From: Escherichia phage YDC107_2
Sequence record: CP025713.1
Reading direction: 5' to 3' (one strand)
DNA length: 18,617 nt
Part shown: positions 7,889 to 18,617 of the stretch, one piece after another
Numbering within the stretch: the stretch's first letter is position 1
How the letters are laid out: each line of letters opens with the position of its first letter
The notes under the pieces: model-generated
Seen by the model: the letters and a program-made list of their open reading frames with translations, nothing else
Told to the model about the DNA's origin: nothing
The model's database searches: none
Translations under genes and position numbers: made by a program

Positions 7889-8061
7889 CATGGCATTTTT
7901 CATGGTACTGATTTCCGGTGACGGTATATAAAACGGTACGGTGAAAATCATGTTGCAGGAAGTTGTTATCAGTCAATTAGTTATGGTATCCGTAAATAAT
8001 TGAGTGGGAATGATTAACAGCTAACTCATAGCAAATCATTCCTATTCAGATGCCAACTCAA

Positions 8062-8092
8062 CCCTCTGTTTTTGCAGAGGGTTTTTGTTTTT
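8062..8092 (+). terminator. rho-independent terminator ending the late/lysis transcript
   Basis: Stem CCCTCTG (8062-8068) / CAGAGGG (8075-8081), 6-nt loop, followed by TTTTTGTTTTT. Confidence 0.6.
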
Positions 8093-8147
8093 ATGTATTC
8101 ATTTCTATTCACTCTACACCATATTTTTCGGCGGTACAGGTGACGGT

Positions 8148-8164
8148 ATTACCTTAAAGGTATA
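8148..8164. promoter_or_regulatory. operator-like palindrome, site B (ATTACCTTAAAGGTATA)
   Basis: TTACCT-N3-AGGTAT, one mismatch to the motif; about 42 bp upstream of the int start and flanked by the TGACGGTAT repeats. Confidence 0.45.
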
Positions 8165-8205
8165 CTCTCATACCGTCATGAAAATGGTTTCTATACGGGT
8201 GAATT

Positions 8206-9456
8206 GTGCTTACCGATACAAAATTAAAAAACCTCAAGCCGCAGGACAAACTGTACAAGGTCTCCGATCGTGACGGGCTGTATGTAGCTGTGCTTACGTC
8301 AGGCACGGTCTCATTTCGTTATGACTACCGTATCAACGGTCGCCGCGAAACACTGGTAATCGGGCAGTATGGGCGTGACGGTATCAGCCTGGCAGAAGCG
8401 CGGGAAGAACTGATTGCTGCAAAGAAGCTGCTTAAAGCAGGCCAGTCACCGGCTGCGGCTAAACGTGACGGTATCAAAAAGATTCGTGGTGCCGAAACGT
8501 TTGCGGTACATACCGACAGTTATATGAAACACGTCATCCTGGCTGAAAGTACCCGCGCAATGAAGCAGGCAGTGATCGACCGTGACATACTTCCGGTTCT
8601 TGGCAACAAAATGATGGCTGAAATTACCACATCGATGGTTCGTGATTTGTGTGACCGGATTGTCGAACGCGGTGGCCGGGCAACAGCAGTGCAGGCCAGG
8701 GAGATCATCAGCAGCGTATACCGTCACGCCAATGACCGTGGTCATGGTTTGTTTAATCCTGCGGCTGACATTAAGCCTTCGTCTATCGCCATATTTAAAC
8801 CACGAGAGCGAACACTGACACCAGAAGAAATTGGCCTGTTCTTCCGCACGTTGGATGCCATTGGTGCTATGGGCACTATGAAAATGGCTTTAAAACTGGT
8901 GCTTATCACTATGGTTCGTAAGGGCGAATTCACCAATGCAACGTGGGATGAAATAGATTTTAAAAAATGGACATGGACAATTCCTTCAGACCGCATGAAG
9001 GGAAGCCGGGCGCATGTTATTTACCTGCCTAAACAGGCTCAGGATATATTGGTCGGGTTGCAGATGTGCGCTGGTGGAAGTGAATATCTGGTTCCTGGTC
9101 GTTACAATTTCCGGAAGCCATTATCTAATGCCGCGCTGAACTCTCTGATCGACAGAACGGTGAAAATAATAAATGAAGATGGTGAGCATATTCAGGATTT
9201 CACCGTACACGATATGCGCCGTACAGCCAGTACGTTGTTGCATGAGGCTGGTTATCCTTCAGACTGGATTGAAAAGGCTCTGGCACATGAGCAGAAAGGT
9301 GTGCGCGCCGTATATAACAAAGCGGAATACGCCAGACAGCGCGCCTACATGTTGCAGCAGTGGGCCGATATGATTGATTCCTGGATTAACGGGGAGCATA
9401 CGGATCTGATTCCGTTCTCCCCGTCGAAGTTTGAGAAGTGGATGGCGGGGGAATAA
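8206..9456 (+). CDS. int: tyrosine recombinase / phage integrase, P4-like with N-terminal arm-binding domain
   Basis: 416-aa intact ORF with GTG start. The N-terminus LTDTKLKNLKPQDKLYKVSDRDGLYVAV is typical of the arm-DNA-binding domain of P4-family integrases; the C-terminal catalytic region carries the HxxR…Y pattern (…HDMRRTASTLLHEAGY…AHEQKGVRAVYNKAEY). Confidence 0.85.
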   Translation: MLTDTKLKNLKPQDKLYKVSDRDGLYVAVLTSGTVSFRYDYRINGRRETLVIGQYGRDGISLAEAREELIAAKKLLKAGQSPAAAKRDGIKKIRGAETFAVHTDSYMKHVILAESTRAMKQAVIDRDILPVLGNKMMAEITTSMVRDLCDRIVERGGRATAVQAREIISSVYRHANDRGHGLFNPAADIKPSSIAIFKPRERTLTPEEIGLFFRTLDAIGAMGTMKMALKLVLITMVRKGEFTNATWDEIDFKKWTWTIPSDRMKGSRAHVIYLPKQAQDILVGLQMCAGGSEYLVPGRYNFRKPLSNAALNSLIDRTVKIINEDGEHIQDFTVHDMRRTASTLLHEAGYPSDWIEKALAHEQKGVRAVYNKAEYARQRAYMLQQWADMIDSWINGEHTDLIPFSPSKFEKWMAGE

Positions 9457-9459
9457 CGT

Positions 9460-9654
9460 TTAATTATTCTGCTGATTTTCTTCCATCTCGGCTTCTGCTG
9501 CCAGTGATTCAATTTTATCTGTGAATATTGCTGACAGTGTTGCAAATTCAGCATCAGTGACAGCGGGAATTGGAACAAACCTGATCCCGCTGTGTGCAAG
9601 CATGTTTGCAGTTTCAAGGCATTTCCTTAAATCTGATGGTGATGCCCTGTTCAT
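9460..9654 (-). CDS. small acidic protein (64 aa) translationally coupled to the methyltransferase; function unknown
   Basis: The ATG at 9654..9652 overlaps the methyltransferase stop (ATGA); it is in frame with track ORF 9460..9774; sequence MNRASPSDLRKCLETANMLAHSGIRFVPIPAVTDAEFATLSAIFTDKIESLAAEAEMEENQQNN. No homology recognised. Confidence 0.35.
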   Translation of the reverse strand: MNRASPSDLRKCLETANMLAHSGIRFVPIPAVTDAEFATLSAIFTDKIESLAAEAEMEENQQNN

Positions 9655-10301
9655 GCTGCACGCTCCCGCCCCTGGTTGTCTGTTGGTGACAGCGGAGCAT
9701 TGCTGAATGCATTTGTTAATCTGGCAATATCCAACGCGTATCCAGGGTGTAGTTGCACTGCCGGGTCTTCGCACTGATTACCCCAAACATCGAAACCATG
9801 AGACGACTGGCGGGCGAACAGTTCAATGCGAGAAACATCGCCTAACAATTGCACAAGTTTTTCACGAACGATATCTGGTTTTCTTGAATGCTCAAGCCGC
9901 GGTGCGGTAAATGACTGAACGATCCCTGCATTAATGCGCGTAGGTAGTTTTCCCTTTACTGCAAACAGGCAATCTTCACTATTGGCGCGAGTCATGTGAC
10001 CCATACCCATAACCAGTTTATCTGGTTGTCGACTACCACATTTTATCCACGTGAATCCCTTCATGGTCATCAGACGGAATCCCCAGGCCTCAACAACTTT
10101 TAGTGCTTCGAGTGGTTGTGTTGGCACCCACCACATGGCCAACAGACAGTTTTCATCGGCCAAATCCCACACAGGAAGGCGGCAGATATCCAGCACACTC
10201 ATAACCGGATATTTAAAACCGGCACCGCGATTACCATCTGCGGCTTTGTCCCGGTATACCCAGGGTGGATCTGCATAGATTAGTGTGTATTTCTTAGTCA
10301 T
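9651..10301 (-). CDS. DNA N6-adenine methyltransferase, MT-A70 family (orphan phage methylase)
   Basis: MTKKYTLIYADPPW… carries the DPPW catalytic motif of MT-A70 / Dam-like N6-adenine methyltransferases. The likely start is the ATG at 10301 (the track extends upstream to 10313). No restriction partner is visible. Confidence 0.7.
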   Translation of the reverse strand: MTKKYTLIYADPPWVYRDKAADGNRGAGFKYPVMSVLDICRLPVWDLADENCLLAMWWVPTQPLEALKVVEAWGFRLMTMKGFTWIKCGSRQPDKLVMGMGHMTRANSEDCLFAVKGKLPTRINAGIVQSFTAPRLEHSRKPDIVREKLVQLLGDVSRIELFARQSSHGFDVWGNQCEDPAVQLHPGYALDIARLTNAFSNAPLSPTDNQGRERAA

Positions 10302-10560
10302 AAACCACCCCACAACATCCTATGCCGCTATAGTCGCCACGGCGAAGGCCGTTACCTTTTGTGATACATTGGTCCCTGCGAACCGCGATCCTTGCACGCT
10401 CAACATCACCAGAAGCAACATCCATACACTGAAGCCAAAGGTGAGCGGCAATGCGGAACTGCCCTTTTTTCTCTCTTTCAATCGCGCGTTTTTCGATCTC
10501 TATCGCCGCAGGAGTAACGGCGACAATCTTTGACGGACTGCGCATTGAAACCTTGTTCAT
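10294..10560 (-). CDS. PerC-like transcriptional activator family protein
   Basis: …KRAIEREKKGQFRIAAHLWLQCMDVASGDVERARIAVRRDQCITKG… resembles the PerC family signature (Lys-Gly…RRAA…W…RRDQC) from memory. The start is ambiguous: ATG 10560 or GTG 10593. Confidence 0.5.
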   Translation of the reverse strand: MNKVSMRSPSKIVAVTPAAIEIEKRAIEREKKGQFRIAAHLWLQCMDVASGDVERARIAVRRDQCITKGNGLRRGDYSGIGCCGVVYD

Positions 10561-10702
10561 GTGATATTTTTCAAGTCGGCTTAACTTTCTCACTTAATCC
10601 AACCCTCTCTGAAAATTAATGCCAGCAGATAAAGCCATGCTGAAACAGAGGCCAGGAATAAGTACCATCCTGACCATTTGCTCCAGTGCCTTAGCAGCAC
10701 AC

Positions 10703-10951
10703 TCATGCCGCGTTGCTCACGGGACGATATACACGTTGCTGAACAGGAGGTTTTTTACCCTGGAACTCTGCCGGGCTTGCTGCCTGACGTTCATCAAGCC
10801 AACGCTCAACTTCATCACGGTTCCATGCGCAGCGTTTATCGGTGATATACCAGCGTTTAGGAAATTCCCCTGCGCGCTCCATACGGTCGATAGTGCTCCA
10901 TGACAGTGGAACCACCGCCAGGAGTTCCTTCTTACCTAATGCACCTTTCAT
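10703..10951 (-). CDS. AlpA-family phage transcriptional regulator / excisionase-like HTH protein
   Basis: 82 aa; LLAVVPLSWSTIDRMERAGEFPKRWYITDKRCAWNRDEVERWL matches the AlpA pattern (…LSRSTIYR…G.FPKP…AW…E.WL). Confidence 0.65.
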   Translation of the reverse strand: MKGALGKKELLAVVPLSWSTIDRMERAGEFPKRWYITDKRCAWNRDEVERWLDERQAASPAEFQGKKPPVQQRVYRPVSNAA

Positions 10952-11000
10952 AAATACCTCTCTTGGTTGCAGTGCGGCGCGCGTGGCGCCGCGGTGGTGG

Positions 11001-11942
11001 TTACATAGATGTTTCGTTTAATTCTTCCCGACGAACGCTGTAAACGTCGGTGGCTTTTGCCAGCAGTTCGTCATCATCTGAAAGTTTTTGTGCAATGTAT
11101 TTGTAAGCCTTATCCAGTTCGGAGACAGTGCTGTAATTCATCGCTGCGCTGGTAAAGGCCATCAGCATTTCTTCTGGATCACGGCTGTCCGATTTACGCG
11201 TTTGCTCATCAGGCTTTTTCGCTGGTTTAGCGTTGATCAGACTGTTCATTCCCGCAGCAGTGGTCGTTTGCGGAGTAATGTCTCGCTCAACGCGCGGTGC
11301 CGTTTCCTGTAATTCGTCTGGGGTGTAGACGCCCATGATTACGTCAGGACAGTGCAGGCGAGACCAGCGTTTTGTCGCAAGGTATGCGAGTTGTTGTTTC
11401 GGATCACTGGCCCAAAGTGTGGAGTTTCTTACCTGTGCTTGAGACAGCATTAACTCAAGCACTCGAGGTTGATCCTCGCCCTTCATGGTTGCCCATACGC
11501 GAACACCGCAGCCTTCTTCGTCTTTTAGAGTCCAGCCTGGTGCGATATATGGATTGCCGTTTTTGGATGTTTTCTCAACAAACTTACCGATCACGCGTTC
11601 CCACGGCCCGAACCACTCGTAGTTGATGCGATCTTTTGTTGGCGACATCGTTGAGATAACTGCGTTTACTAATTGGGCTTCATAACCTAGCGTGCCGTTC
11701 ACAACATGGGTTTTCTGAGCCACGGCAAACGGGTTCATTCCCCACTGCGCAGCCTGCATTGCCACGGCCATGCAATCAGCTGGTTTCCCGGCGAGGTGCG
11801 CCGGTACCGTTACGCGGCTTTGCGCCATTACCTCGGCGAATTTCATCAGTTGGTTCAAGCCGTCTGGGCTGAAAATAGTTGCAGCAGTTCCAGCGATTGC
11901 TGTGTCTACTGGTGCGTTGATGTTTGCGATGTCGTTGCTCAT
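11001..11942 (-). CDS. recT: RecT-family single-strand annealing recombinase
   Basis: About 313 aa. The ATG at 11942..11940 overlaps the exonuclease stop (ATGA). The RecT assignment rests on length and pairing with the adjacent exonuclease; the family call is from memory. Confidence 0.65.
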   Translation of the reverse strand: MSNDIANINAPVDTAIAGTAATIFSPDGLNQLMKFAEVMAQSRVTVPAHLAGKPADCMAVAMQAAQWGMNPFAVAQKTHVVNGTLGYEAQLVNAVISTMSPTKDRINYEWFGPWERVIGKFVEKTSKNGNPYIAPGWTLKDEEGCGVRVWATMKGEDQPRVLELMLSQAQVRNSTLWASDPKQQLAYLATKRWSRLHCPDVIMGVYTPDELQETAPRVERDITPQTTTAAGMNSLINAKPAKKPDEQTRKSDSRDPEEMLMAFTSAAMNYSTVSELDKAYKYIAQKLSDDDELLAKATDVYSVRREELNETSM

Positions 11943-12760
11943 ATGTACATATCCTGTTTGCGTGCCCACTCAGGGCGTTTAATGATTTCCACACCGCCCC
12001 ATTCATCATTGATGCGGCATTCGTGATAGGTATTCAGATCCCGGCGGAACAGAGCGTGCCCGGCATCGACATCCTGCGCATCCAGCTCGAACACGCGTAC
12101 CGGATACCGACCACAATCAATGCTTTCGCTCACGGCAAGAAAGAAAAAACCATGCGGCTGACCAGTAACCCTCATTGCGCCTTCGCGGTACATTGCGTCC
12201 TGCACGTGGTAGCGGAATTCCTCGATGTGGCGTGCAAAACGGTCCATATCTGCAACCTTTTTCACGTCGACGATCACGTTGTGCTCGTTCAGCCATTTGT
12301 CTGGACGAATTCGGCACAACTCCCCCGTCTCTTCATCGTTCCAGTACATTGATGCTTCGCAGTAACCAGGTGCTTCCAGCATCCAGCGTGCCGCCGGGTG
12401 AGCCATTGCGCTATCACGCATCAGCTCCAGTTTCCGCCACTGCTCGGCATCAAGTACCGTAATCCCCATATCCGCCACATCACGAAGAAATTCCTCTTCG
12501 TCAGCTTTACCTTGTTTCGTCCGACGATCGAATTTCGGTGAAACAATGAAGCGTTTGTCGAACTCTCCAGGCTCCAGAAGCAGACAGTGCAATGCGGTTC
12601 CCATATCCAGTGCAGACTTTTTCTCTTCGTCTTCTGGTGCTGCCTGAACCCATTTAAGAAGCGCCGGATTCTTGGCAACCATGTCCAGTTGCGACTTACT
12701 CACGCCGTCACCGGCGTGGTAGTCTTCGTTGCTGATGTCGAAATAAATTCCCGGTTTCAT
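11939..12760 (-). CDS. RecE-like PD-(D/E)XK 5'-3' exonuclease, partner of RecT
   Basis: 273-aa intact ORF beginning MKPGIYFDISNEDYHAGDGVSKSQLD…, with …RIRPDKWLNEHNVIVDVKKV… consistent with a PD-(D/E)XK nuclease core; translationally coupled to the flanking genes. Confidence 0.6.
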   Translation of the reverse strand: MKPGIYFDISNEDYHAGDGVSKSQLDMVAKNPALLKWVQAAPEDEEKKSALDMGTALHCLLLEPGEFDKRFIVSPKFDRRTKQGKADEEEFLRDVADMGITVLDAEQWRKLELMRDSAMAHPAARWMLEAPGYCEASMYWNDEETGELCRIRPDKWLNEHNVIVDVKKVADMDRFARHIEEFRYHVQDAMYREGAMRVTGQPHGFFFLAVSESIDCGRYPVRVFELDAQDVDAGHALFRRDLNTYHECRINDEWGGVEIIKRPEWARKQDMYI

Positions 12761-13020
12761 GCCGCGTCCCTCTGCCCATCAAGCTGATCAGCCAGATCCC
12801 AGCGGGCGATAATTGCCATTGCCTCGCGCCGGTAGGCATCCATTAGTTCTTCGAACTCAGGGCTGTCTTTAGCGGCCTCCAGTACTTCCTGGCGAACGCC
12901 TTTAACTGTTACAACGTCGAAAGTTGATGCCAGTTGATGAAGCCGGATACTCTCAATCAGTTCAACTTGTCGGTCATATAGCTGTTCTGACAGACGGTAG
13001 TCCTTGTCGAATGCCAGCAT
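12757..13020 (-). CDS. hypothetical early protein (87 aa, helical), first long gene of the leftward early operon
   Basis: Intact track ORF whose stop overlaps the exonuclease start; no motif recognised. Lambda places gam/kil-type genes in this position. Confidence 0.45.
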   Translation of the reverse strand: MLAFDKDYRLSEQLYDRQVELIESIRLHQLASTFDVVTVKGVRQEVLEAAKDSPEFEELMDAYRREAMAIIARWDLADQLDGQRDAA

Positions 13021-13057
13021 GATTTTTGAAGATTTTTCTGCTGATTAACGTTCATTA

Positions 13058-13210
13058 TCAGCCCTCCCATATCTCGTTATCGTTGGCCACATCGCGAGCT
13101 TCTTTGCTGACGAAAGCCCACTTAATGCCTTCCTGTAAGGTGCGGAACTTCCAGCTCATGAATCCGCATGCAGTAACGCAGTACCAACCGTTGATGATTT
13201 TCCACTGCAT
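13058..13210 (-). CDS. small hypothetical protein (50 aa) immediately downstream of the early-left promoter
   Basis: Hand translation MQWKIINGWYCVTACGFMSWKFRTLQEGIKWAFVSKEARDVANDNEIWEG; GAGGT lies 9 nt upstream of the ATG at 13210; below the track cutoff. Confidence 0.35.
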   Translation of the reverse strand: MQWKIINGWYCVTACGFMSWKFRTLQEGIKWAFVSKEARDVANDNEIWEG

Positions 13211-13228
13211 AACTTGTTACCTCGGTCT

Positions 13229-13245
13229 GTTACCGTTGAGGTAAT
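13229..13245. promoter_or_regulatory. operator-like palindrome, site C (GTTACCGTTGAGGTAAT) at the early-left promoter
   Basis: TTACCG-N3-AGGTAA, directly abutting the -10-like element; an extra TTACC half-site lies at 13217-13221. Confidence 0.5.
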
Positions 13246-13272
13246 AATTATGCGTATATGGTTTGATGTCAA
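13246..13272 (-). promoter_or_regulatory. candidate early-left (pL-like) sigma-70 promoter
   Basis: On the minus strand a perfect TTGACA -35 (13272..13267) is followed 15-17 nt later by a CATAATT -10-like element (about 13252..13246), bracketed by operator sites D and C. Confidence 0.4.
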
Positions 13273-13290
13273 TAGATATGAGTTAAAAAA

Positions 13291-13307
13291 ATTACCCGTT
13301 AGGTAAT
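13291..13307. promoter_or_regulatory. operator-like palindrome, site D (ATTACCCGTTAGGTAAT)
   Basis: TTACCC-N3-AGGTAA, between the repressor terminator and the -35 of the early-left promoter. Confidence 0.5.
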
Positions 13308-13316
13308 CGAATAGGC

Positions 13317-13340
13317 AATAAAAAGCCGCCATAAGGCGGC
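13317..13340 (-). terminator. rho-independent terminator of the repressor gene
   Basis: GCCGCC (13325-13330), loop ATAA, GGCGGC (13335-13340); on the minus strand the stem is followed by TTTTTATT (complement of 13317-13324). Confidence 0.5.
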
Positions 13341-13362
13341 TTACTTACTGAAAAATATGGTT

Positions 13363-13948
13363 TTATTGTTTGTTTTTTTCGTTCTGGTTGATGACAAATT
13401 CAATGTAACTTTCGATCTTTGCTTTCTCGGTTTCGGGTAACAATGCGTAGCGCGAGCGATCATAGTTGATGGTCGCAGGGTCGTGCGGGTGAATCAGTAA
13501 TTCATAGCCGTGACGCCCGAATGCGGATGCAACATTCTCCAGGGTGGAAATGGAAACGCTGACCTCATTGTTTAACAGGCGGCTGATTGTCACCTGGGCG
13601 ACGCCGGATGCGCGGTGAAGTTTTCCCTGTGTTGAAAGGTCGCGGCTTTCGCTCATCCAGCGTTCCAGGTTGTGAGCCGCCAGCTGGCCAATGTCGCTTG
13701 GGCCGACAGGCTGAAAACCTTCCTGAGAAAGCGAGCGATCGATATCAAGCCAGTTACGGGGTTTATTGGCGGCAGCTTCAATTTTTCGCGCAACCTGATC
13801 GCCGATAACCTTCTTACCAAGAGCCCAGCGGTTTTACCAGATTTGCCTGAGTTCCAAGTTTTTCAGCCATCCGCGTCTGAACACCATTGAATTCACGGTC
13901 GATCAAGTCGTTGAGATTTTGCCTGCGGACGTCCTGGATACTTTTCAT
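13363..13948 (-). CDS. immunity repressor candidate: CI-like protein with two HTH-like regions and no recognisable LexA-like S24 cleavage domain; one frameshift
   Basis: Minus-strand ATG at 13948 gives MKSIQDVRRQNLNDLIDREFNGVQTRMAEKLGTQANLV… (HTH), which stops after the A-run near 13830; the next frame continues …GKKVIGDQVARKIEAAANKP… into track ORF 13363..13656 (second HTH-like …GKLHRASGVAQVTISRLLNN…). It is divergent from the Cro-like gene with operator palindromes on both sides. Confidence 0.6.
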
Positions 13949-14002
13949 TTTCTGGAAAATCGCCTCATATCTGAATCAGAAGATGATTCAATTTAAAGCA
14001 AT

Positions 14003-14019
14003 ATTACCCAACAGGTAAA
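14003..14019. promoter_or_regulatory. operator-like palindrome, site E (ATTACCCAACAGGTAAA) in the repressor/cro intergenic region
   Basis: TTACCC-N3-AGGTAA; a degenerate copy GCACCTCATGGGTAAC follows at 14021-14036. Confidence 0.5.
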
Positions 14020-14050
14020 TGCACCTCATGGGTAACTATCCTTGATTTTT

Positions 14051-14067
14051 GTTACCTTATAGGTGAA
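14051..14067. promoter_or_regulatory. operator-like palindrome, site F (GTTACCTTATAGGTGAA)
   Basis: TTACCT-N3-AGGTGA, one mismatch; about 35 bp upstream of the Cro-like ATG; a TTGATT -35-like hexamer lies at 14042-14047. Confidence 0.45.
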
Positions 14068-14102
14068 TATTTATTATCTGAAATAAATATCAGGCAATAG
14101 CT

Positions 14103-14333
14103 ATGAGCGATAACGGACATTTCGATTTCAAAAAGCACTGGCTTGCACTTACTCCGGATGAGCGTGAAGCCTTCGCACAGGAAGCCGGAACGACGAGTCA
14201 CTATATCCAGACTCACTTAACAGGTAAGCGCAAAATGCCAGGTAAGGTATTGATGAATGGGCTTTTTAAAGCCTGTAAATCAAGACAATGGCTGCGCTCA
14301 AAAGCAGAACTGGTATACTTCTTCTACTCATGA
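14103..14333 (+). CDS. Cro-like / CII-like small HTH regulator (76 aa)
   Basis: Intact track ORF divergent from the repressor; …DEREAFAQEAGTTSHYIQTHLTGKR… has a helix-turn-helix signature; followed by a terminator. Confidence 0.5.
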   Translation: MSDNGHFDFKKHWLALTPDEREAFAQEAGTTSHYIQTHLTGKRKMPGKVLMNGLFKACKSRQWLRSKAELVYFFYS

Positions 14334-14355
14334 TATCCAGCTACAACCCTCTGTA

Positions 14356-14378
14356 GACCGCCACCCGGCGGTCTTTTC
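14356..14378 (+). terminator. rho-independent terminator after the Cro-like gene
   Basis: GACCGCC (14356-14362), loop ACCC, GGCGGTC (14367-14373), then TTTTC. Confidence 0.5.
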
Positions 14379-14387
14379 ATATCTATT

Positions 14388-14404
14388 CGTACCTCAAAGG
14401 TAAT
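14388..14404. promoter_or_regulatory. operator-like palindrome, site G (CGTACCTCAAAGGTAAT)
   Basis: GTACCT-N3-AGGTAA, one mismatch; downstream of the cro terminator and upstream of the zinc-ribbon gene. Confidence 0.4.
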
Positions 14405-14483
14405 AAATAACCAAATGTGGTTGATCTTTTTTTTGTGTCAGCACAAAATGACCGTAATCCCAATACTAATAACAGGGCTTACC

Positions 14484-14683
14484 ATGGAAATCATTACACG
14501 TATTGATGCCGCAAAGCGCGGACTTAAACGCTACTACACCGGAAAACATGTAAGCACGGACATGACAGTGAACGCTGGGTTTACAACGGACACTGTGTTG
14601 AGTGCACCATGGAATCAAACCGTCGTATCAGGGCAGAGATTAAGCAGATCATGATTAATTCCTCCCCACAACATTCAAGCTGA
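14484..14683 (+). CDS. small zinc-ribbon-like protein (about 66 aa) between cro and the replication genes; one frameshift
   Basis: ATG 14484 with AGGG RBS gives MEIITRIDAAKRGLKRYYTGK…; after the A-run near 14540 the next frame reads …TCKHGHDSERWVYNGHCVECTMESNRRIRAEIKQIMINSSPQHSS, with a Cys/His cluster consistent with a zinc ribbon. Confidence 0.4.
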
Positions 14684-14698
14684 TAGCGGAGATTAATC

Positions 14699-15545
14699 AT
14701 GAGCAGACATGCAACAGATTGGGCCTGGGAGACAGATCCAGGTAGCTCGTCATTAAAGCTCATACTGCTCTCGATGGCTGACAGAGCCGAATGAATATAA
14801 CCTCTGCTACCCCAGCATAGAACGCCTCGTTAAAGACACTTGCCTGAATAAAAAAACCGTGCAGGCCGGGCTTATATCGCTCATGAAAATGGGGCTTATT
14901 TCAGAATACCGGAGAGAGAAAGGGAGCGACGAAAAGAGTGCGGGTTTTCTCTCTTAATATAACCAAAAACGGGAACATTAAAGGCAACCGGGAAGGGGTA
15001 ATGAACCGAAAGCGGTAATGTTACCGGAAAACGGGAATATACCCAAAAAACGGGATGTTGAATGATCCCAAAAAACGGGATGTTGAATGATCCCAAAAAC
15101 GGGATCCAGAACCAGTCATATAACCAGTCATTTACCAAGAGAGGGAGAGCAGGACAAAAAACGGGGATTCTGTGCATCATGACCCCGGCGCAAACAACGC
15201 CGTGATGAATAACTTTGTTCCTCCTGGTGGGCTAGGGCAATTAGGCAAATTTGTCATGCATGAACAATGGCGGCCATCAGATGATTTCTTCGGAAAAGCT
15301 CATTGCAGGGGATCTACCTGGACAGTCTGCCAACGGCACAGGAACTTGCAGAGTTCAGAATTTACTGGATGGCTGAGGGTAAGGCATACCATCAGGCACA
15401 GTGGGAGCAGAAGCTGGCAAGGCGGCTGCAGATTAGCAGACAGAAGCAATCAACATTACCTGATAACAACGTTCCGCACTGGAACAGCCCTGAAGCATGG
15501 AGGATTTCTTGTGAACAACGTTTTTACCGCGATACAAAACCGTGA
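14699..15545 (+). CDS. replication initiator (lambda O-like organisation): N-terminal HTH domain, internal origin iterons, C-terminal DnaT-like domain; reading frame broken in several places
   Basis: ATG 14699 with GGAG RBS gives MSRHATDWAWETD…; after a shift near 14775-14790 it continues …NEYNLCYPSIERLVKDTCLNKKTVQAGLISLMKMGLI… (replication-protein HTH). The iterons lie at 14963-15170. Track ORF 15303..15545 (…TAQELAEFRIYWMAEGKAYHQAQWEQKLARRLQ…) resembles the C-terminal domain of E. coli DnaT from memory. Confidence 0.5.
14963..15170. repeat. origin-of-replication iterons (AAAACGGGA-type direct repeats)
   Basis: The core ACGGGA/ACGGGG recurs six times at 14969, 15031, 15050, 15075, 15099 and 15161, including two identical tandem 25-bp copies CCCAAAAAACGGGATGTTGAATGAT (15042-15066 and 15067-15091). 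The region also holds a palindrome CGGTAATGTTACCG (15013-15026) and a direct repeat ACCAGTCAT (15111-15119, 15124-15132). Confidence 0.55.
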
Positions 15546-15564
15546 CGGAGAAGCCCTTTCTCGC

Positions 15565-16298
15565 ATGTCAGGTTATGAGCATCAGTACACCAACAATGAC
15601 AACGTAGTGAACATGTCAGCAGAGAGGCTTGTTGATGCCCTTTTCAAACAGTTGAAACACTGTTTCCGGCGGCAGTGGTAACCAACCTGAAGACGCCAGA
15701 GCAGGAAGTTGCTGCAAAACAGCAGTGGATTGCTGCGTTTGCCGAAGGGGGGATCCGAACCCGTGAACAGGTTTCTGCTGGTATGCGCCACGCCCGCGCC
15801 AGTGAATCTCCGTTCTGGCCGTCCGCCAGGGGCAATTTATCAAGTGGTGTAAAGACAGCAAGATGGTTCTTGGCGTCACCAATTGACGATGTGATGGCGG
15901 AGTTTCACCGGTACAGCAAGGAAAAAAGTTTATATCCTGGTGGTCCCGAAAGATTCCCGTGGCGGCATCCGGTTATGTACTGGGTCGTATGTGATACCCG
16001 CCGTGCAATGTATCAGCGCCAGCTTAGCGAGATTGAGGTTGAGAAACACGCGCGCAGGCCTGCTTGATGATTGGGCGAAAAAGGTGGCTTCCGGACAGCA
16101 GATACCCGATCCGGTGATCAGCATACAGGCAAAGCCAGAACCCATGAGTACGCCTCCGGACACAGGGAGAGACGTTTACCATCCACCAGGGCGAAGTTTC
16201 GGGTGTATGCCTAACGCCGCTACCCTGGGGGGAAAACACCGGCGCAGTGGCTGATGGAGGAATACAGGCGGGGAAAGGCGGCAGGATTTATCAAGTAA
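15565..16298 (+). CDS. lambda P-like replication protein (DnaB helicase loader); three frameshifts
   Basis: Track ORF 15675..16067 contains …QQWIAAFAEGGIRTREQVSAGMRHARASESPFWPSARG…SLYPGGPERFPWRHPVMYWVV…, which aligns with lambda P (…RRQWVLAFRENGITTMEQVNAGMRVARRQNRPFLPSPGQ…GLYPDAESYPWKSNAHYWLV…) from memory. The N-terminus is in frame 1 from ATG 15565; the C-terminus continues in ORF 15940..16254 and shifts again at GGGGGGAAAA (about 16228) to end …GKTPAQWLMEEYRRGKAAGFIK at TAA 16296-16298. Confidence 0.6.
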
Positions 16299-16335
16299 TA
16301 CCAGCGCGATAGCGCATTTTTTTTACGTCTCAATA

Positions 16336-16352
16336 ATTACCTATCAGGTAAC
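16336..16352. promoter_or_regulatory. operator-like palindrome, site H (ATTACCTATCAGGTAAC)
   Basis: TTACCT-N3-AGGTAA, in the intergenic region after the P-like gene. Confidence 0.45.
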
Positions 16353-16398
16353 AAAGCATTCTAAACTCTATTGATTTCGTGTCTTATGTGGTTTTTTA

Positions 16399-16415
16399 AT
16401 TACCTTAGAGGTAAA
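16399..16415. promoter_or_regulatory. operator-like palindrome, site I (ATTACCTTAGAGGTAAA), overlapping the RBS of the next gene
   Basis: TTACCT-N3-AGGTAA ending 3 nt before the ATG at 16418; the AGGT half doubles as the Shine-Dalgarno sequence. Confidence 0.45.
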
Positions 16416-16417
16416 TC

Positions 16418-16763
16418 ATGAGAAAACAGATACAGGCTCTTGGTCGACTCAAAACAGGCCAGATGAACAAAACAGAATCTGCGTATTGCCAGCACCTTGA
16501 GCAGCGTAAACGTGCAGGGGAAAATCGCCTGGTATCGATTCGAGGGTATCAAGTTGCGGTTAGCTGACAACACGTTCTATACGCCAGATTTCGCTGTGAT
16601 GCTCGCCACCGGAGAGATGGAACTGCACGAAGTGAAAGGTTTCTGGACCGACGACGCCAGGGTGAAAACCAAAGTCGCCGCAGATCAGTATCCGTTCCGA
16701 ATCATCGGGGTAACGGTTAAGCCAAAGAAAGCAGGTGGTGGCTGGAACATCGAAGAGTTCTGA
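16418..16763 (+). CDS. small PD-(D/E)XK-type nuclease (phage DUF1064-like, Holliday-junction-resolvase-like); one frameshift
   Basis: ATG 16418 gives MRKQIQALGRLKTGQMNKTESAYCQHLEQRKRAGE…; after GGGGAAAA (about 16518) the next frame continues as track ORF 16497..16763 (…WYRFEGIKLRLADNTFYTPDFAVMLATGEMELHEVKGFWTDD…), showing a PD…E.K nuclease motif. Confidence 0.5.
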
Positions 16764-16824
16764 ATCGACGATCTTTTTAGTTATCAATGTTATCAATAAG
16801 TTATGTGGATAAGCGAGGGTAAAG

Positions 16825-17274
16825 ATGGAAAGTATGGCTGAAGGTATGATCAAAGATTTAGTGGCATCAGGGCATGCGTTAGCTGACGACATGACAGGCG
16901 CACCATCCGTGCTTGTTCGCTGTTTGGCAACGCAACTGGAAGTGCAACTGGTGCGTGCTAATGCGCTGGCGGGGAGAAATGAGCTGGCTCGTAAGGCAGT
17001 TCAGGCATTCTGCGATGTTGTTGGCGACAACACTGAGGTTATCGCTGAGGTGGTTGGGCGAGATGGCGTTCTGGTTATTTTGGAGGCCATGAAGGCAACA
17101 GGAAATATGCCAGCCACCGATGCTTTCCTGGCTGAAATTGAACGCAAAGCAATCCGCAAGTTCATTAACAGCATTGAACACATCCTGCGTGACAAGTTAT
17201 CACCGTATGACACCGAAGAGATGCTTGAGGCTATGCGTATTTTTCTGGAAGAACAGGGAGGTGAGCAAAAATGA
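16825..17274 (+). CDS. hypothetical phage protein (149 aa)
   Basis: Intact track ORF with a GAGGG RBS; helical, no motif recognised; its stop overlaps the next start (ATGA). Confidence 0.5.
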   Translation: MESMAEGMIKDLVASGHALADDMTGAPSVLVRCLATQLEVQLVRANALAGRNELARKAVQAFCDVVGDNTEVIAEVVGRDGVLVILEAMKATGNMPATDAFLAEIERKAIRKFINSIEHILRDKLSPYDTEEMLEAMRIFLEEQGGEQK

Positions 17275-17584
17275 CGATCACAAAACAACGTGTAGAAGAA
17301 ATCATATCCCGCATTGAAATGTATGGGCATGGTGGGATACCGCTGACGAGGTTTATGACCTTGCTGTACTGGCGCTGAATTTATCAAATATCGCAAAACT
17401 CAAGCGATACGAGCTTGATATGGATGGTTGTGACTCGTTCGGTCAGGATTGTGGCGCTGACATGACTGAAGATTCTGATGGCGATTATGTCCTGTTTGAT
17501 GACGTGGTTAAGTTGTTTGAGTTTGATACAACCACTCAGAAGTTAGAAAACCCAGCAAAGGAGTCAACCAGTGAGCAAGATTAA
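17271..17584 (+). CDS. hypothetical acidic protein (about 104 aa); one frameshift
   Basis: ATG 17271 gives MTITKQRVEEIISRIEMYGHGG…; after a shift at GGTGGG (about 17328) it continues …DTADEVYDLAVLALNLSNIAKLKRYELDMDGCDSFGQDCGADMTEDSDGDYVLFDDVVKLFEFDTTTQKLENPAKESTSEQD, stopping at 17582-17584. Confidence 0.35.
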
Positions 17585-18578
17585 TTACCAGGCACTGCGT
17601 GAAAAGGCAGAGAAAGCAACGTGTGGTGTGTGGTCGCTCGAATATGGAGAGGGACGATTTGATGGTGATGATGCACTAATTCATCGCGAGGCTGCTGGAT
17701 ATATTCCTATTTGCAGAATTGAAGGAGCGCATCCAGAAAGCCGTTTCTATGAAGATTTCCAAATGGAACAGCAGGCCAATGCTGAATTCATCGCCGCCGC
17801 CAATCCGGCTACTGTGCTGGCGCTTCTGGATGAACGGGAAAGAAACCAGCAATACATCAAACGCCGTGACCAGGAGAACGAGGATATTGCTCTTACGGTT
17901 GGGAAGCTGAGAGTTGAGCTTGAGGAAGTAAAACAACACGCTGAAGAATTATCCGAAACCAAGGCTGTTCGTAACCAATGGCGGCCAGATATTTGCCCAA
18001 TAACCGGACGTGCATTTTTCATGTGGATTGAGCATCCAACATTGGGGAATGTGCCGACATATGGTGGCCCATTAGATAGTTACACCATTCCAACAAAGGA
18101 CGGTGACGGTGAGTTTTCATGTGAGCGTTACGATCATGATTTTGGCGGTTGGGTAGAAAGCGAATGTCTTGGGTTATATCTGATTGATGATAGAGAACAA
18201 TGCAGGGTCTACGAACTGGAGGAACGCGTTAAGGAACTGGAAGCGCGGGAAATACTGCTCCCGGAACGTAGCAGCATGCTTCATCGAACAGATTTTCACG
18301 AGGATTACCAAACGGTAATGGCATACAAGTTTCTGAGGTCATCGCTGCAATCCGCGCCGCTGGCATTCGCATCAAAGGAGAGTGAGATGGACGGACAAAT
18401 ATCAATCGTTCGACCAGGAGCATGTGACGATCGCGAAATACGAATAATTATTCGTCTGGCAATGGGGAAAGCAATAACTGCTCTCATTACCCCAGAAAAT
18501 CTCGCATTAGCATTAACAGGAAAGTCAGACCTGCCAGTAGAGCTAAAGCTGCGAAATGTTGAGATTAAGGTGAAATAG
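17571..18578 (+). CDS. Ead/Ea22-like early protein
   Basis: 335-aa intact ORF with GTG start after AAGGAG; the N-terminus MSKINYQALREKAEKATCGVWS… resembles Ea22-like proteins of lambdoid prophages (from memory), with a central coiled coil. Confidence 0.55.
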   Translation: MSKINYQALREKAEKATCGVWSLEYGEGRFDGDDALIHREAAGYIPICRIEGAHPESRFYEDFQMEQQANAEFIAAANPATVLALLDERERNQQYIKRRDQENEDIALTVGKLRVELEEVKQHAEELSETKAVRNQWRPDICPITGRAFFMWIEHPTLGNVPTYGGPLDSYTIPTKDGDGEFSCERYDHDFGGWVESECLGLYLIDDREQCRVYELEERVKELEAREILLPERSSMLHRTDFHEDYQTVMAYKFLRSSLQSAPLAFASKESEMDGQISIVRPGACDDREIRIIIRLAMGKAITALITPENLALALTGKSDLPVELKLRNVEIKVK

Positions 18579-18617
18579 CATGAATTCTATTACCAAAGAA
18601 CGTATTGAATTGTTCAT
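18579..18617 (+). CDS. start of a further gene (MNSITKERIELF…) running off the window
   Basis: ATG at 18579 immediately after the Ea22-like stop; only 13 codons are visible. Confidence 0.3.

Follow-up and report, generated by a model that had tools for sequence, protein, structure and literature searches.

The initiator gene and the repeats within it

We analysed an 18,617-nucleotide (nt) stretch of DNA from Escherichia phage YDC107_2 (sequence record CP025713.1; hereafter the window), in which one gene, the orthologue of the phiV10 replication initiator gene gp43, carries an array of short repeats (iterons) in the part that codes for the linker between its two folded domains. We predict that these repeats form a lambda-type replication origin within this phiV10-like initiator gene, a reading to which we assign a probability of about 0.8. 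An origin at this place had been proposed before from the letters of the window alone (the original prediction), and the present analysis retains its outline and alters several of its details (see below). The features of the locus are collected in Table 1.

Positions 14400–16400 of the window are 96.7–97.5% identical to the Escherichia phages phiV10, PAS61, phiv142-3 and PH444 (Uetakevirus), the left 8 kb corresponds to a late region of the phiV10 type (92–94% identity), and positions 7999–18617 are 99.7% identical to the prophage that adjoins guaA in E. coli YDC107. The order of the genes is also that of phiV10. Judged by nucleotide identity and gene order, the window is from a phiV10-like temperate phage, a member of the Uetakevirus (phiV10/epsilon15-like) group.

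As it stands in the window, the reading frame of the initiator is broken into several open reading frames (ORFs). In phiV10, PAS61, YDC107 and hundreds of E. coli genomes, it is intact as one coding sequence, from which the single full-length protein that the original prediction had asked for could be reconstructed. Aligned with YDC107, the gene shows ten single-base, mostly homopolymer insertions or deletions (indels), which add up to a net of zero, and no true substitution. Along the entire alignment with the YDC107 prophage, 13 bases are inserted, 15 are deleted and none is convincingly substituted; these differences, almost all of them changes in the length of homopolymers, fall within 13022–18326, with none in 7999–13021. 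Because about 28 mostly homopolymer indels come with essentially no substitutions, the frameshifts are best explained as read or assembly errors and not as gene decay. The corrected sequence holds one ORF of 271 amino acids (aa) with a DnaT-like domain, and not, as would have spoken against the original prediction, two unrelated genes parted by non-coding repeats and devoid of a DnaT-like fold.

The reconstructed protein matches the family PHROG 1032 (‘replication initiation protein’) over residues 1–269 (1e-106), and its repeats lie, as first proposed, between two recognizable domains. At the N-terminus, Pfam PF13730 (HTH_36) aligns with residues 18–67 (1.8e-10); HTH_36 is present in 73/73 members of the PHROG 1032 family of phage initiators, and PHROG 678 and PHROG 345 (‘replication initiation O-like’) are matched by the N-termini of both the initiator and lambda O (for PHROG 678, 4.8e-12 and 1.7e-35, respectively). 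The resemblance of the C-terminal domain to host DnaT was borne out by Pfam DnaT (PF17948; residues 184–252, 1.6e-15) and by the DnaT structures 6aep, 4ou6 and 9zbt in the Protein Data Bank (PDB) (DnaT residues 85–170; E 2e-20, about 50% identity). Five of the six residues proposed to contact single-stranded DNA (ssDNA) in DnaT are retained (His136, Trp140, Lys143, Arg146 and a further Arg). The NCBIfam model of DnaT (NF002770) aligns at its positions 86–169 only, with a score of 83.6 against a cut-off of 201. Since the protein has no DnaT N-terminal domain and scores far under this cut-off, its C-terminus is most probably a domain resembling the DnaT C-terminal domain (CTD) rather than part of a DnaT orthologue; the phage context and the fusion to an origin-binding domain would argue for a role different from that in PriA/PriB-dependent replication restart.

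The next gene codes for a lambda P-like helicase loader, again in agreement with the original prediction (Phage_lambda_P, 1.5e-56), and its start overlaps the stop codon of the initiator gene (GTGA). Both genes are intact and overlapping in phiV10, PAS61 and YDC107, where an initiator of 271–275 aa is followed by a 261-aa ‘replication protein P’.

Table 1. Features at and around the initiator gene, in window coordinates. Letters in brackets within a sequence mark bases that differ between the window and the intact sequence or, for the boxes, alternatives.
Feature	Position	Strand	Basis or remark
Replication initiator gene, phiV10 gp43 orthologue, 271 aa when intact	14699..15514	+	phiV10/YDC107 identity; PHROG 1032
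N-terminal HTH_36 (winged-helix type) domain, aa 1–88, presumed to bind the iterons	14699..14963	+	Pfam PF13730
Iteron a (degenerate), ATAACCAAAAACGGGAAC	14959..14976	+	mostly conserved in 83 close relatives
AACCGGGAA in a hypervariable patch, probably not a functional site	14986..14994	+	present in 58/83 close relatives
Iteron c (degenerate), GAACC(C)GAAAGCGGTAAT, one C missing in the window	15003..15019	+	one half of the palindrome is its right arm, GGTAA
Palindrome CGGTAATGTTACCG at the junction of iterons c and d	15013..15026	.	polymorphic, chance frequency
Iteron d (degenerate), GTTACC(G)GAAAACGGGAAT, extra G in the window	15020..15038	+	18-bp unit, copy number varies among relatives
Iteron e, ATACCCAAAAA(A)CGGGATG, extra A in the window	15039..15057	+	
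Iteron f, GATCCCAAAAA(A)CGGGATG, dyad ATCCC-N6-GGGAT, extra A in the window	15064..15082	+	
Iteron g, GATCCCAAAAACGGGATC, perfect dyad with 6-bp arms	15089..15106	+	
Phased 12-bp boxes (G/T)AACCAGTCAT(A/T)T, two full copies and a partial one (three full in phiV10)	15109..15137	+	
Purine-rich, strand-asymmetric tract, candidate unwinding region; includes the non-conserved AAAACGGGGA	15137..15167	+	
DnaT CTD-like ssDNA-binding domain, aa 181–264	15241..15491	+	Pfam, NCBIfam and PDB matches; frame checked
C-terminal tail VPHWNSPEAWEDFL, candidate docking peptide for the P-like loader	15471..15511	+	
Lambda P-like helicase loader gene, frameshifted in the window	15511..16298	+	Pfam Phage_lambda_P 1.5e-56; PHROG 109 ‘P-like helicase loader’
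Operator-like TTACC-N5-GGTAA palindromes	2594, 6215, 8149, 13230, 13292, 14004, 14052, 14389, 16337, 16400		

The repeat unit is a dyad

The heptamer AACGGGA is found at 14968, 15030, 15049, 15074 and 15098, that is, five times within 140 base pairs (bp), against an expectation of 1.8 for the whole 18.6 kb. With the variants AACCGGGAA (14986) and AAAACGGGGA (15158), the count rises to the ‘six’ ACGGGA-core repeats of the original prediction, or to seven. The repeats are present far above chance, but ACGGGA is only the right arm of the true repeat unit, which is a 16–18-bp dyad, (G)ATCCC-AAAAAC-GGGAT(C), and the two variants are not conserved: among close relatives (80 viral contigs with a 99–100% identical N-domain; counts are given over 83 close relatives throughout), the one at 14986 is found in 58/83 and the one at 15158 in 23/83. 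Both lie within hypervariable patches, and nt 289–312 of the gene are among its most variable 24-nt stretches. The hypervariable patches, at 14986–15000 and 15157–15176, flank the conserved origin core and reach a nucleotide diversity (pi) of 0.09–0.10 per 24-nt window, with non-synonymous changes included.

The two perfect tandem 25-bp copies noted earlier (15042–15066 and 15067–15091) are indeed identical in the window, and Tandem Repeats Finder reports a period of 25 at 15042–15105 (2.6 copies, 97% matches, score 121). However, in two iterons of the window the A5 run is one A too long (at 15045 and 15070); a run of six is found in 0/83 close relatives, in which the spacing of these iterons is always 24 bp, or eight codons (PKNGMLND). 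The 25-bp period is thus an artefact, and 24 bp the true one. Read in the intact, error-corrected sequence, the array consists of three strong iterons 24 bp apart, preceded by three degenerate iterons 19–42 bp apart (start-to-start spacings of 42, 20, 19, 24 and 24 bp). Altogether, six to seven sites occupy 14959–15106, between the HTH_36 and the DnaT-like domains. A terminator scan placed three minus-strand sites inside iterons (six in total, with 3.3 expected); in our reading, these three arise from the dyad arms combined with the A5/T5 run and are not terminators.

Conservation of the array in close and distant relatives

In close relatives, the number of iterons changes by whole units, the 24-bp unit from one to six and the 18-bp unit from one to three copies, and the lengths of the initiator proteins in the databases (271, 279 and 287 aa) fit such steps, as does the series seen in E. 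coli prophages (263, 271, 279, 287, 295 aa and so on). Diversity was assessed on the 54 genes of standard length from close relatives, which comprise 48 distinct sequences. Within the gene it is lowest in the three core iterons, with a pi of 0.0017, followed by the 12-bp boxes next to them (0.0026), the folded domains (0.007–0.010 in the two) and the flanking linker (0.02–0.04). Counted over third codon positions only, pi amounts to 0.0017 for the core iterons and to 0.016–0.029 for the domains, a difference of about 10-fold.

The distant set (n = 85) was made up of 80 genome loci whose N-domain is 40–87% identical, from Enterobacterales, Vibrio, Pseudoalteromonas, Marinomonas, Acinetobacter, Desulfovibrionaceae, Sphingomonadales and others, together with five phages. 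Iteron-like arrays follow the N-domain in nearly all of these, starting at about nt 260–340 of the gene. Sites of the form CC-N6(A-rich)-GG number 364 in the 42.5 kb of array region (8.6 per kb) and 119 in 193 kb of flanking DNA (0.62 per kb); at least one such site is present in 82/85 loci and at least three in 76/85. Outside the invariant CC and GG, the two arms remain complementary to each other: the observed complementarity was reached in 12 of 2000 shuffles at position 1 and in none of 2000 at positions 2 and 3, with no signal at position 4 (a supportive rather than an exact test; see below), and at least six complementary pairs of arms occur (GTCCC/GGGAC, GTTCC/GGAAC, GTACC/GGTAC, ATCCC/GGGAT, CCCCC/GGGGG and CACCC/GGGTG). 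Spacings of 17, 19, 22 and 25 bp are found among the relatives, and the sites are distributed over the three reading frames as 222/83/59. The covariation of the arms and the occurrence of sites in every reading frame across distant relatives show that selection acts on the DNA of the repeats and not on the peptide that they encode.

A second element follows the array. At least three GAAYC boxes, phased at 12–13 bp, stand directly after the last iteron in 52/85 loci, often followed by an A-rich run; clusters of such boxes are found once in 235 kb of flanking DNA and not at all on the other strand. The boxes in the window are a GAACC/TAACC/T(A)ACC variant of this family-wide motif. This suggests that the GAAYC boxes are a second conserved element of the putative origin.

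Resemblance to the lambda origin and to other known systems

The origin of lambda consists of four iterons and an AT-rich tract inside gene O, with gene P next, and the original prediction that the locus mirrors this arrangement is supported at several levels. The annotated lambda iterons (ATCCCTCAAAACGAGGGA, ATCCCCTAAAACGAGGGAT, ATCCCTCAAATTGGGGGAT and ATCCCTCAAAACAGGGGGA, spaced by 20, 24 and 23 bp) share with those described here the theme TCCC..AAAAC..GGGA and also the frame in which it is read (CCN for Pro, AAC for Asn and GGN for Gly, giving Pro-x-Asn-x-Gly). In both, the iterons have the same orientation, are dyad-symmetric, contain an A-tract and lie about 20–24 bp apart, inside the initiator gene and between the parts encoding the N-terminal DNA-binding and the C-terminal domains; in both, the gene for a P-family loader follows and overlaps the stop codon, and the unit formed by N-domain and iterons recombines with different C-termini. 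The two systems differ in that the dyad of lambda is 3 bp longer (ATCCCTC-N5-GAGGGAT, compared with ATCCC-N6-GGGAT in the phiV10 type); in the phiV10 type, moreover, the N-domain is HTH_36 instead of Phage_rep_O, the C-terminal domain is DnaT-like and has no similarity to the C-terminus of lambda O, and phased 12-bp boxes and a purine-rich tract take the place of a tract of more than 75% AT. Over 12000–18617, the part for which skews were profiled, the AT skew reaches its maximum, 0.349, at 14800–15199; the GC skew is confounded by a switch in the direction of transcription near 14000.

The O proteins of the Stx phages 933W and P27, the genes of which carry six iterons, are true orthologues of lambda O for which binding and replication were tested experimentally (PMC7466680). 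As in those phages, the number of in-gene iterons varies among related phages and alters the length of the protein, here by 8 aa per 24-bp unit (271, 279 and 287 aa). With the DnaT of E. coli and Klebsiella (primosomal protein I; 4OU6, 6AEP and 9ZBT) the phiV10-type initiator shares the C-terminal ssDNA-binding domain, at about 50% identity, but lacks the N-terminal oligomerisation and PriB-linked domain (aa 1–84), and it differs further in that this domain is fused to an origin-binding one and encoded beside a P-type loader.

The gene itself has been annotated before. It is 96–99% identical to gp43 of phiV10 (YP_512298, ‘replication initiation protein’, assigned to the DnaT family by HAMAP MF_01061), and the RefSeq entry ‘DnaT-like ssDNA-binding domain-containing protein’ is the same gene; its domain content is therefore already part of the public annotation. 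No origin or iteron is annotated in the phiV10, PAS61 and YDC107 records of the gene.

The array travels with the N-domain

The initiator of Edwardsiella phage GF-2 (‘DNA replication protein O’) has an N-domain 52% identical to that of the window up to residue 139, followed at the same position by three near-identical iterons (AATGATCCCAAAATTGGGATTTTG) with the same 24-bp period and ATCCC...GGGAT arms, and a P gene comes next. The GF-2 iterons differ in their spacer (AAAATT in place of AAAAAC), and after the end of the array the protein continues into a C-terminal domain of the lambda O type. The reverse is seen in Tyrion and SPN1S, Uetakeviruses and thus of the same genus as phiV10, which have the DnaT-like C-terminus in common with it, whereas their N-domains are unrelated and an array of this kind is absent; a search of the two genes for in-gene iterons of their own, at seed 6, found none. 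Because GF-2 keeps the N-domain and the iterons with another C-terminus, and Tyrion and SPN1S do the opposite, the array belongs with the N-domain, and it is the C-terminal domains that are exchanged. Also in lambdoid phages, the specificity for the origin goes with the N-domain. Other C-termini found on the module of N-domain and iterons are Phg_2220_C (five members) and the N-terminal domain of DnaA (PF11638; two members, best E 5e-9), the latter being the part of DnaA that contacts DnaB.

The C-terminal tail and the P-like loader

Among the 73 members of the initiator family, a P-like gene is next in 8/8 of those with a DnaT-like C-terminus and in 8/65 of the others (hypergeometric p about 1e-6, calculated by hand), counts which represent about three to four independent lineages only. 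A motif at the very end of the protein, W[ND][ST]PE[AG]W, is found in 7/16 initiators with a P partner and in 0/57 of the others, and a lambda O-like tail in 5/16 and 0/57, respectively. P-partnered initiators with C-domains of three types share the Trp/acidic end (V)PHWNSPEAWEDFL; the tail of Tyrion is identical to that of the window (VPHWNSPEAWEDFL), and SPN1S, in which the P gene is missing, is without it. From this distribution we infer that the tail may dock the P-like protein and that the DnaT-like domain may do something else; for the role proposed for the tail and for that proposed for the DnaT-like domain alike (see below), we would put the odds somewhat under even. The ribosome-binding site of the P gene may instead account for part of the conservation of the tail.

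Alternative readings of the repeats

If the initiator were a true pseudogene of a decaying prophage, the repeats would be the relic of a dead origin. The frame is interrupted about ten times within the gene and about 28 times over 13.0–18.3 kb, as this would require, yet decay should have added substitutions as well, whereas nearly all of the differences from YDC107 are changes in homopolymers, and those inside the gene cancel out to zero; we regard decay as very improbable. Still less credit can be given to the idea that the repeats merely encode a linker rich in Asn, Pro and Gly (the PKNGMLND repeats), their DNA as such having no role. That the 24-bp units are in frame here, producing an 8-residue peptide repeat, and that their number changes by whole units would suit such a linker; a peptide constraint does not account for a motif placed at 17, 19, 22 or 25 bp in the relatives, and so in all three frames, for arms that co-vary in a manner that keeps the dyad, or for third codon positions about 10-fold less variable in the core iterons than in the folded domains. 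More serious, though unlikely, is a reading in which the iterons bind the initiator for autoregulation, copy control or exclusion, and the origin lies elsewhere, for example in the upstream intergenic region. Plasmid iterons, too, mediate handcuffing and autorepression, there is no strong AT-rich unwinding element beside the array, and no DnaA box is found near it (the window has a single one, at 16804, which is below chance). On the other hand, the arrangement, orientation and sequence theme of the repeats match those of ori lambda, where such sites are the origin, and the phased GAAYC boxes and A/purine-rich DNA that follow the array in 52/85 relatives are expected of an origin rather than of an operator.

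The original prediction had also drawn attention to a palindrome within the array, CGGTAATGTTACCG, in which operator half-sites appear in the opposite arrangement, and had taken it as a hint of cross-talk between repressor and origin. Its half-sites, TTACC and GGTAA, do match the operator-like palindromes TTACC-N5-GGTAA, of which the window has ten, up to one mismatch being allowed, where 0.46 would be expected. Those near 14004 and 14052 sit at divergent promoters; two others lie past the P gene and the terminator behind it, directly ahead of a DUF1064 gene, and three are far off, in the late and integrase region, which suggests that the outlying palindromes may be additional repressor-controlled sites. 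In the palindrome of the array, however, the half-sites point outward across a 2-bp gap, not inward across 5 bp. The outward arrangement, GGTAA-N2-TTACC, occurs once in the window and at least once in 67 of 200 shuffles, so that a third of shuffles yield such a site by chance. The exact palindrome is missing from 28/83 near-identical relatives (23 have GGTAATGTTCCC, two a spacer variant and three no such site), and a GGTAAT arm recurs in GF-2 despite a different, CI-type repressor in that phage. Both arms are accounted for by the array itself, as the right arm of iteron c (GGTAA for GGGAT) abuts the left arm of iteron d (TTACC for ATCCC). The proposed cross-talk is thus not upheld, and a repressor site here that couples immunity to the firing of the origin is, in our view, among the least probable of the readings considered.

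Several points weigh against the assignment of the repeats as an origin of the lambda type, and against the functions ascribed to the initiator. The literature was searched for work that maps the phiV10 origin, deals with ‘DnaT-like’ proteins of phages or describes iterons in initiators of this kind, and nothing relevant came up. Direct homology of sequence to lambda O could not be demonstrated: BLASTP of the initiator against lambda O gave nothing, Pfam Phage_rep_O (PF04492) is not matched at E ≤ 0.01, and hhalign of a 42-sequence profile of the N-domain with lambda O returned a probability of 3%, albeit in a sensible register. A PDB search with the N-domain profile retrieved weak matches to winged-helix regulators only (E ≥ 0.1), and AlphaFold2 run on the intact protein without an alignment reached a pLDDT (predicted local distance difference test) of 37; the domain boundaries rest on sequence matches. 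The shuffles used for the covariation of the arms ignore the relatedness of the sequences, and the lineages behind the association of the DnaT-like domain with P are few. Because the epsilon15-like Salmonella phage SPN1S has the DnaT-like domain and no P-like gene, with DUF1064 directly next, a P partner is not an absolute requirement of this domain. Finally, there is no AT-rich tract like that of lambda beside the array: over 30 nt, the AT content peaks at 0.70 on its left side and at 0.63 in the boxes; the unwinding site proposed below is for this reason a guess.

Two further observations concern the record itself. The frameshifted appearance of most genes rightward from the repressor region is a quality problem of one part of the window. 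Also, the prophage of YDC107 borders on guaA with its integrase end, and in the window tail-fibre and lysis genes of the phiV10 type precede the integrase gene (8206–9456); in this respect, the window reads like a circular or permuted phage genome, and not like the integrated prophage of YDC107.

A model for initiation and its implications

Taken as a lambda-type origin, the array would work as follows. Dimers of the N-domain would bind the iterons and assemble a nucleoprotein complex resembling the O-some, and the duplex would open at the adjacent boxes and purine-rich tract. The array would thereby gather the DnaT CTD-like domains, which could bind the exposed single strand and perhaps form a filament on it, and the P-like protein, docked probably via the Trp/acidic tail of the initiator, would deliver the host DnaB. 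Transcription from the operator-controlled rightward promoter would read through the origin, as in lambda. Lambda O binds the ssDNA of its AT-rich region (PMC7466680), and in preprimosome structures published in 2026 the C-terminal domain of DnaT forms a filament on ssDNA, for which the authors draw a parallel to DnaA (PMC13377028). Because of these two precedents, capture of the opened strand is the most likely role that we can suggest for the DnaT-like domain.

An origin inside the initiator gene, with a P-type loader next to it, is the design of lambda and is ordinary for a phage of this kind; the textbook picture is unchanged. What is new here is the correct iteron, its conservation across the family together with the covariation of its arms, the phased boxes and the tail motif. 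The one lead of wider, if moderate, interest is the presence of a DnaT CTD-like domain inside an origin-binding initiator. For annotation, the analysis places a probable origin in phiV10-type phages, which include O157 reporter and typing phages and very common prophages of E. coli, and it accounts for the length variants of the ‘primosomal protein’ as variants in iteron copy number. How DnaT-type domains help to load DnaB is still open for the host preprimosome (PMC13377028), and this natural fusion of an origin-binding domain with a DnaT ssDNA-filament domain could be used for studying that help.

We tentatively extend the model to the family, in a form that we hold to be rather less probable than the roles proposed for the tail and the DnaT-like domain. 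HTH_36, the dyad iterons and the GAAYC boxes may constitute a portable origin cassette that recombines with helicase-recruiting C-termini (DnaT CTD-like, lambda O-like, Phg_2220_C or DnaA_N); in the phiV10 group, the C-terminus would contribute an ssDNA filament of the DnaT type, with P docked separately via the WNSPEAW tail. If this is true, one small phage protein would work like DnaA, combining recognition of the duplex origin with a filament on ssDNA, and ssDNA filaments of the DnaT type would act in de novo initiation, beyond replication restart. A common ancestor of phage initiators and host DnaT would then be suggested as well.

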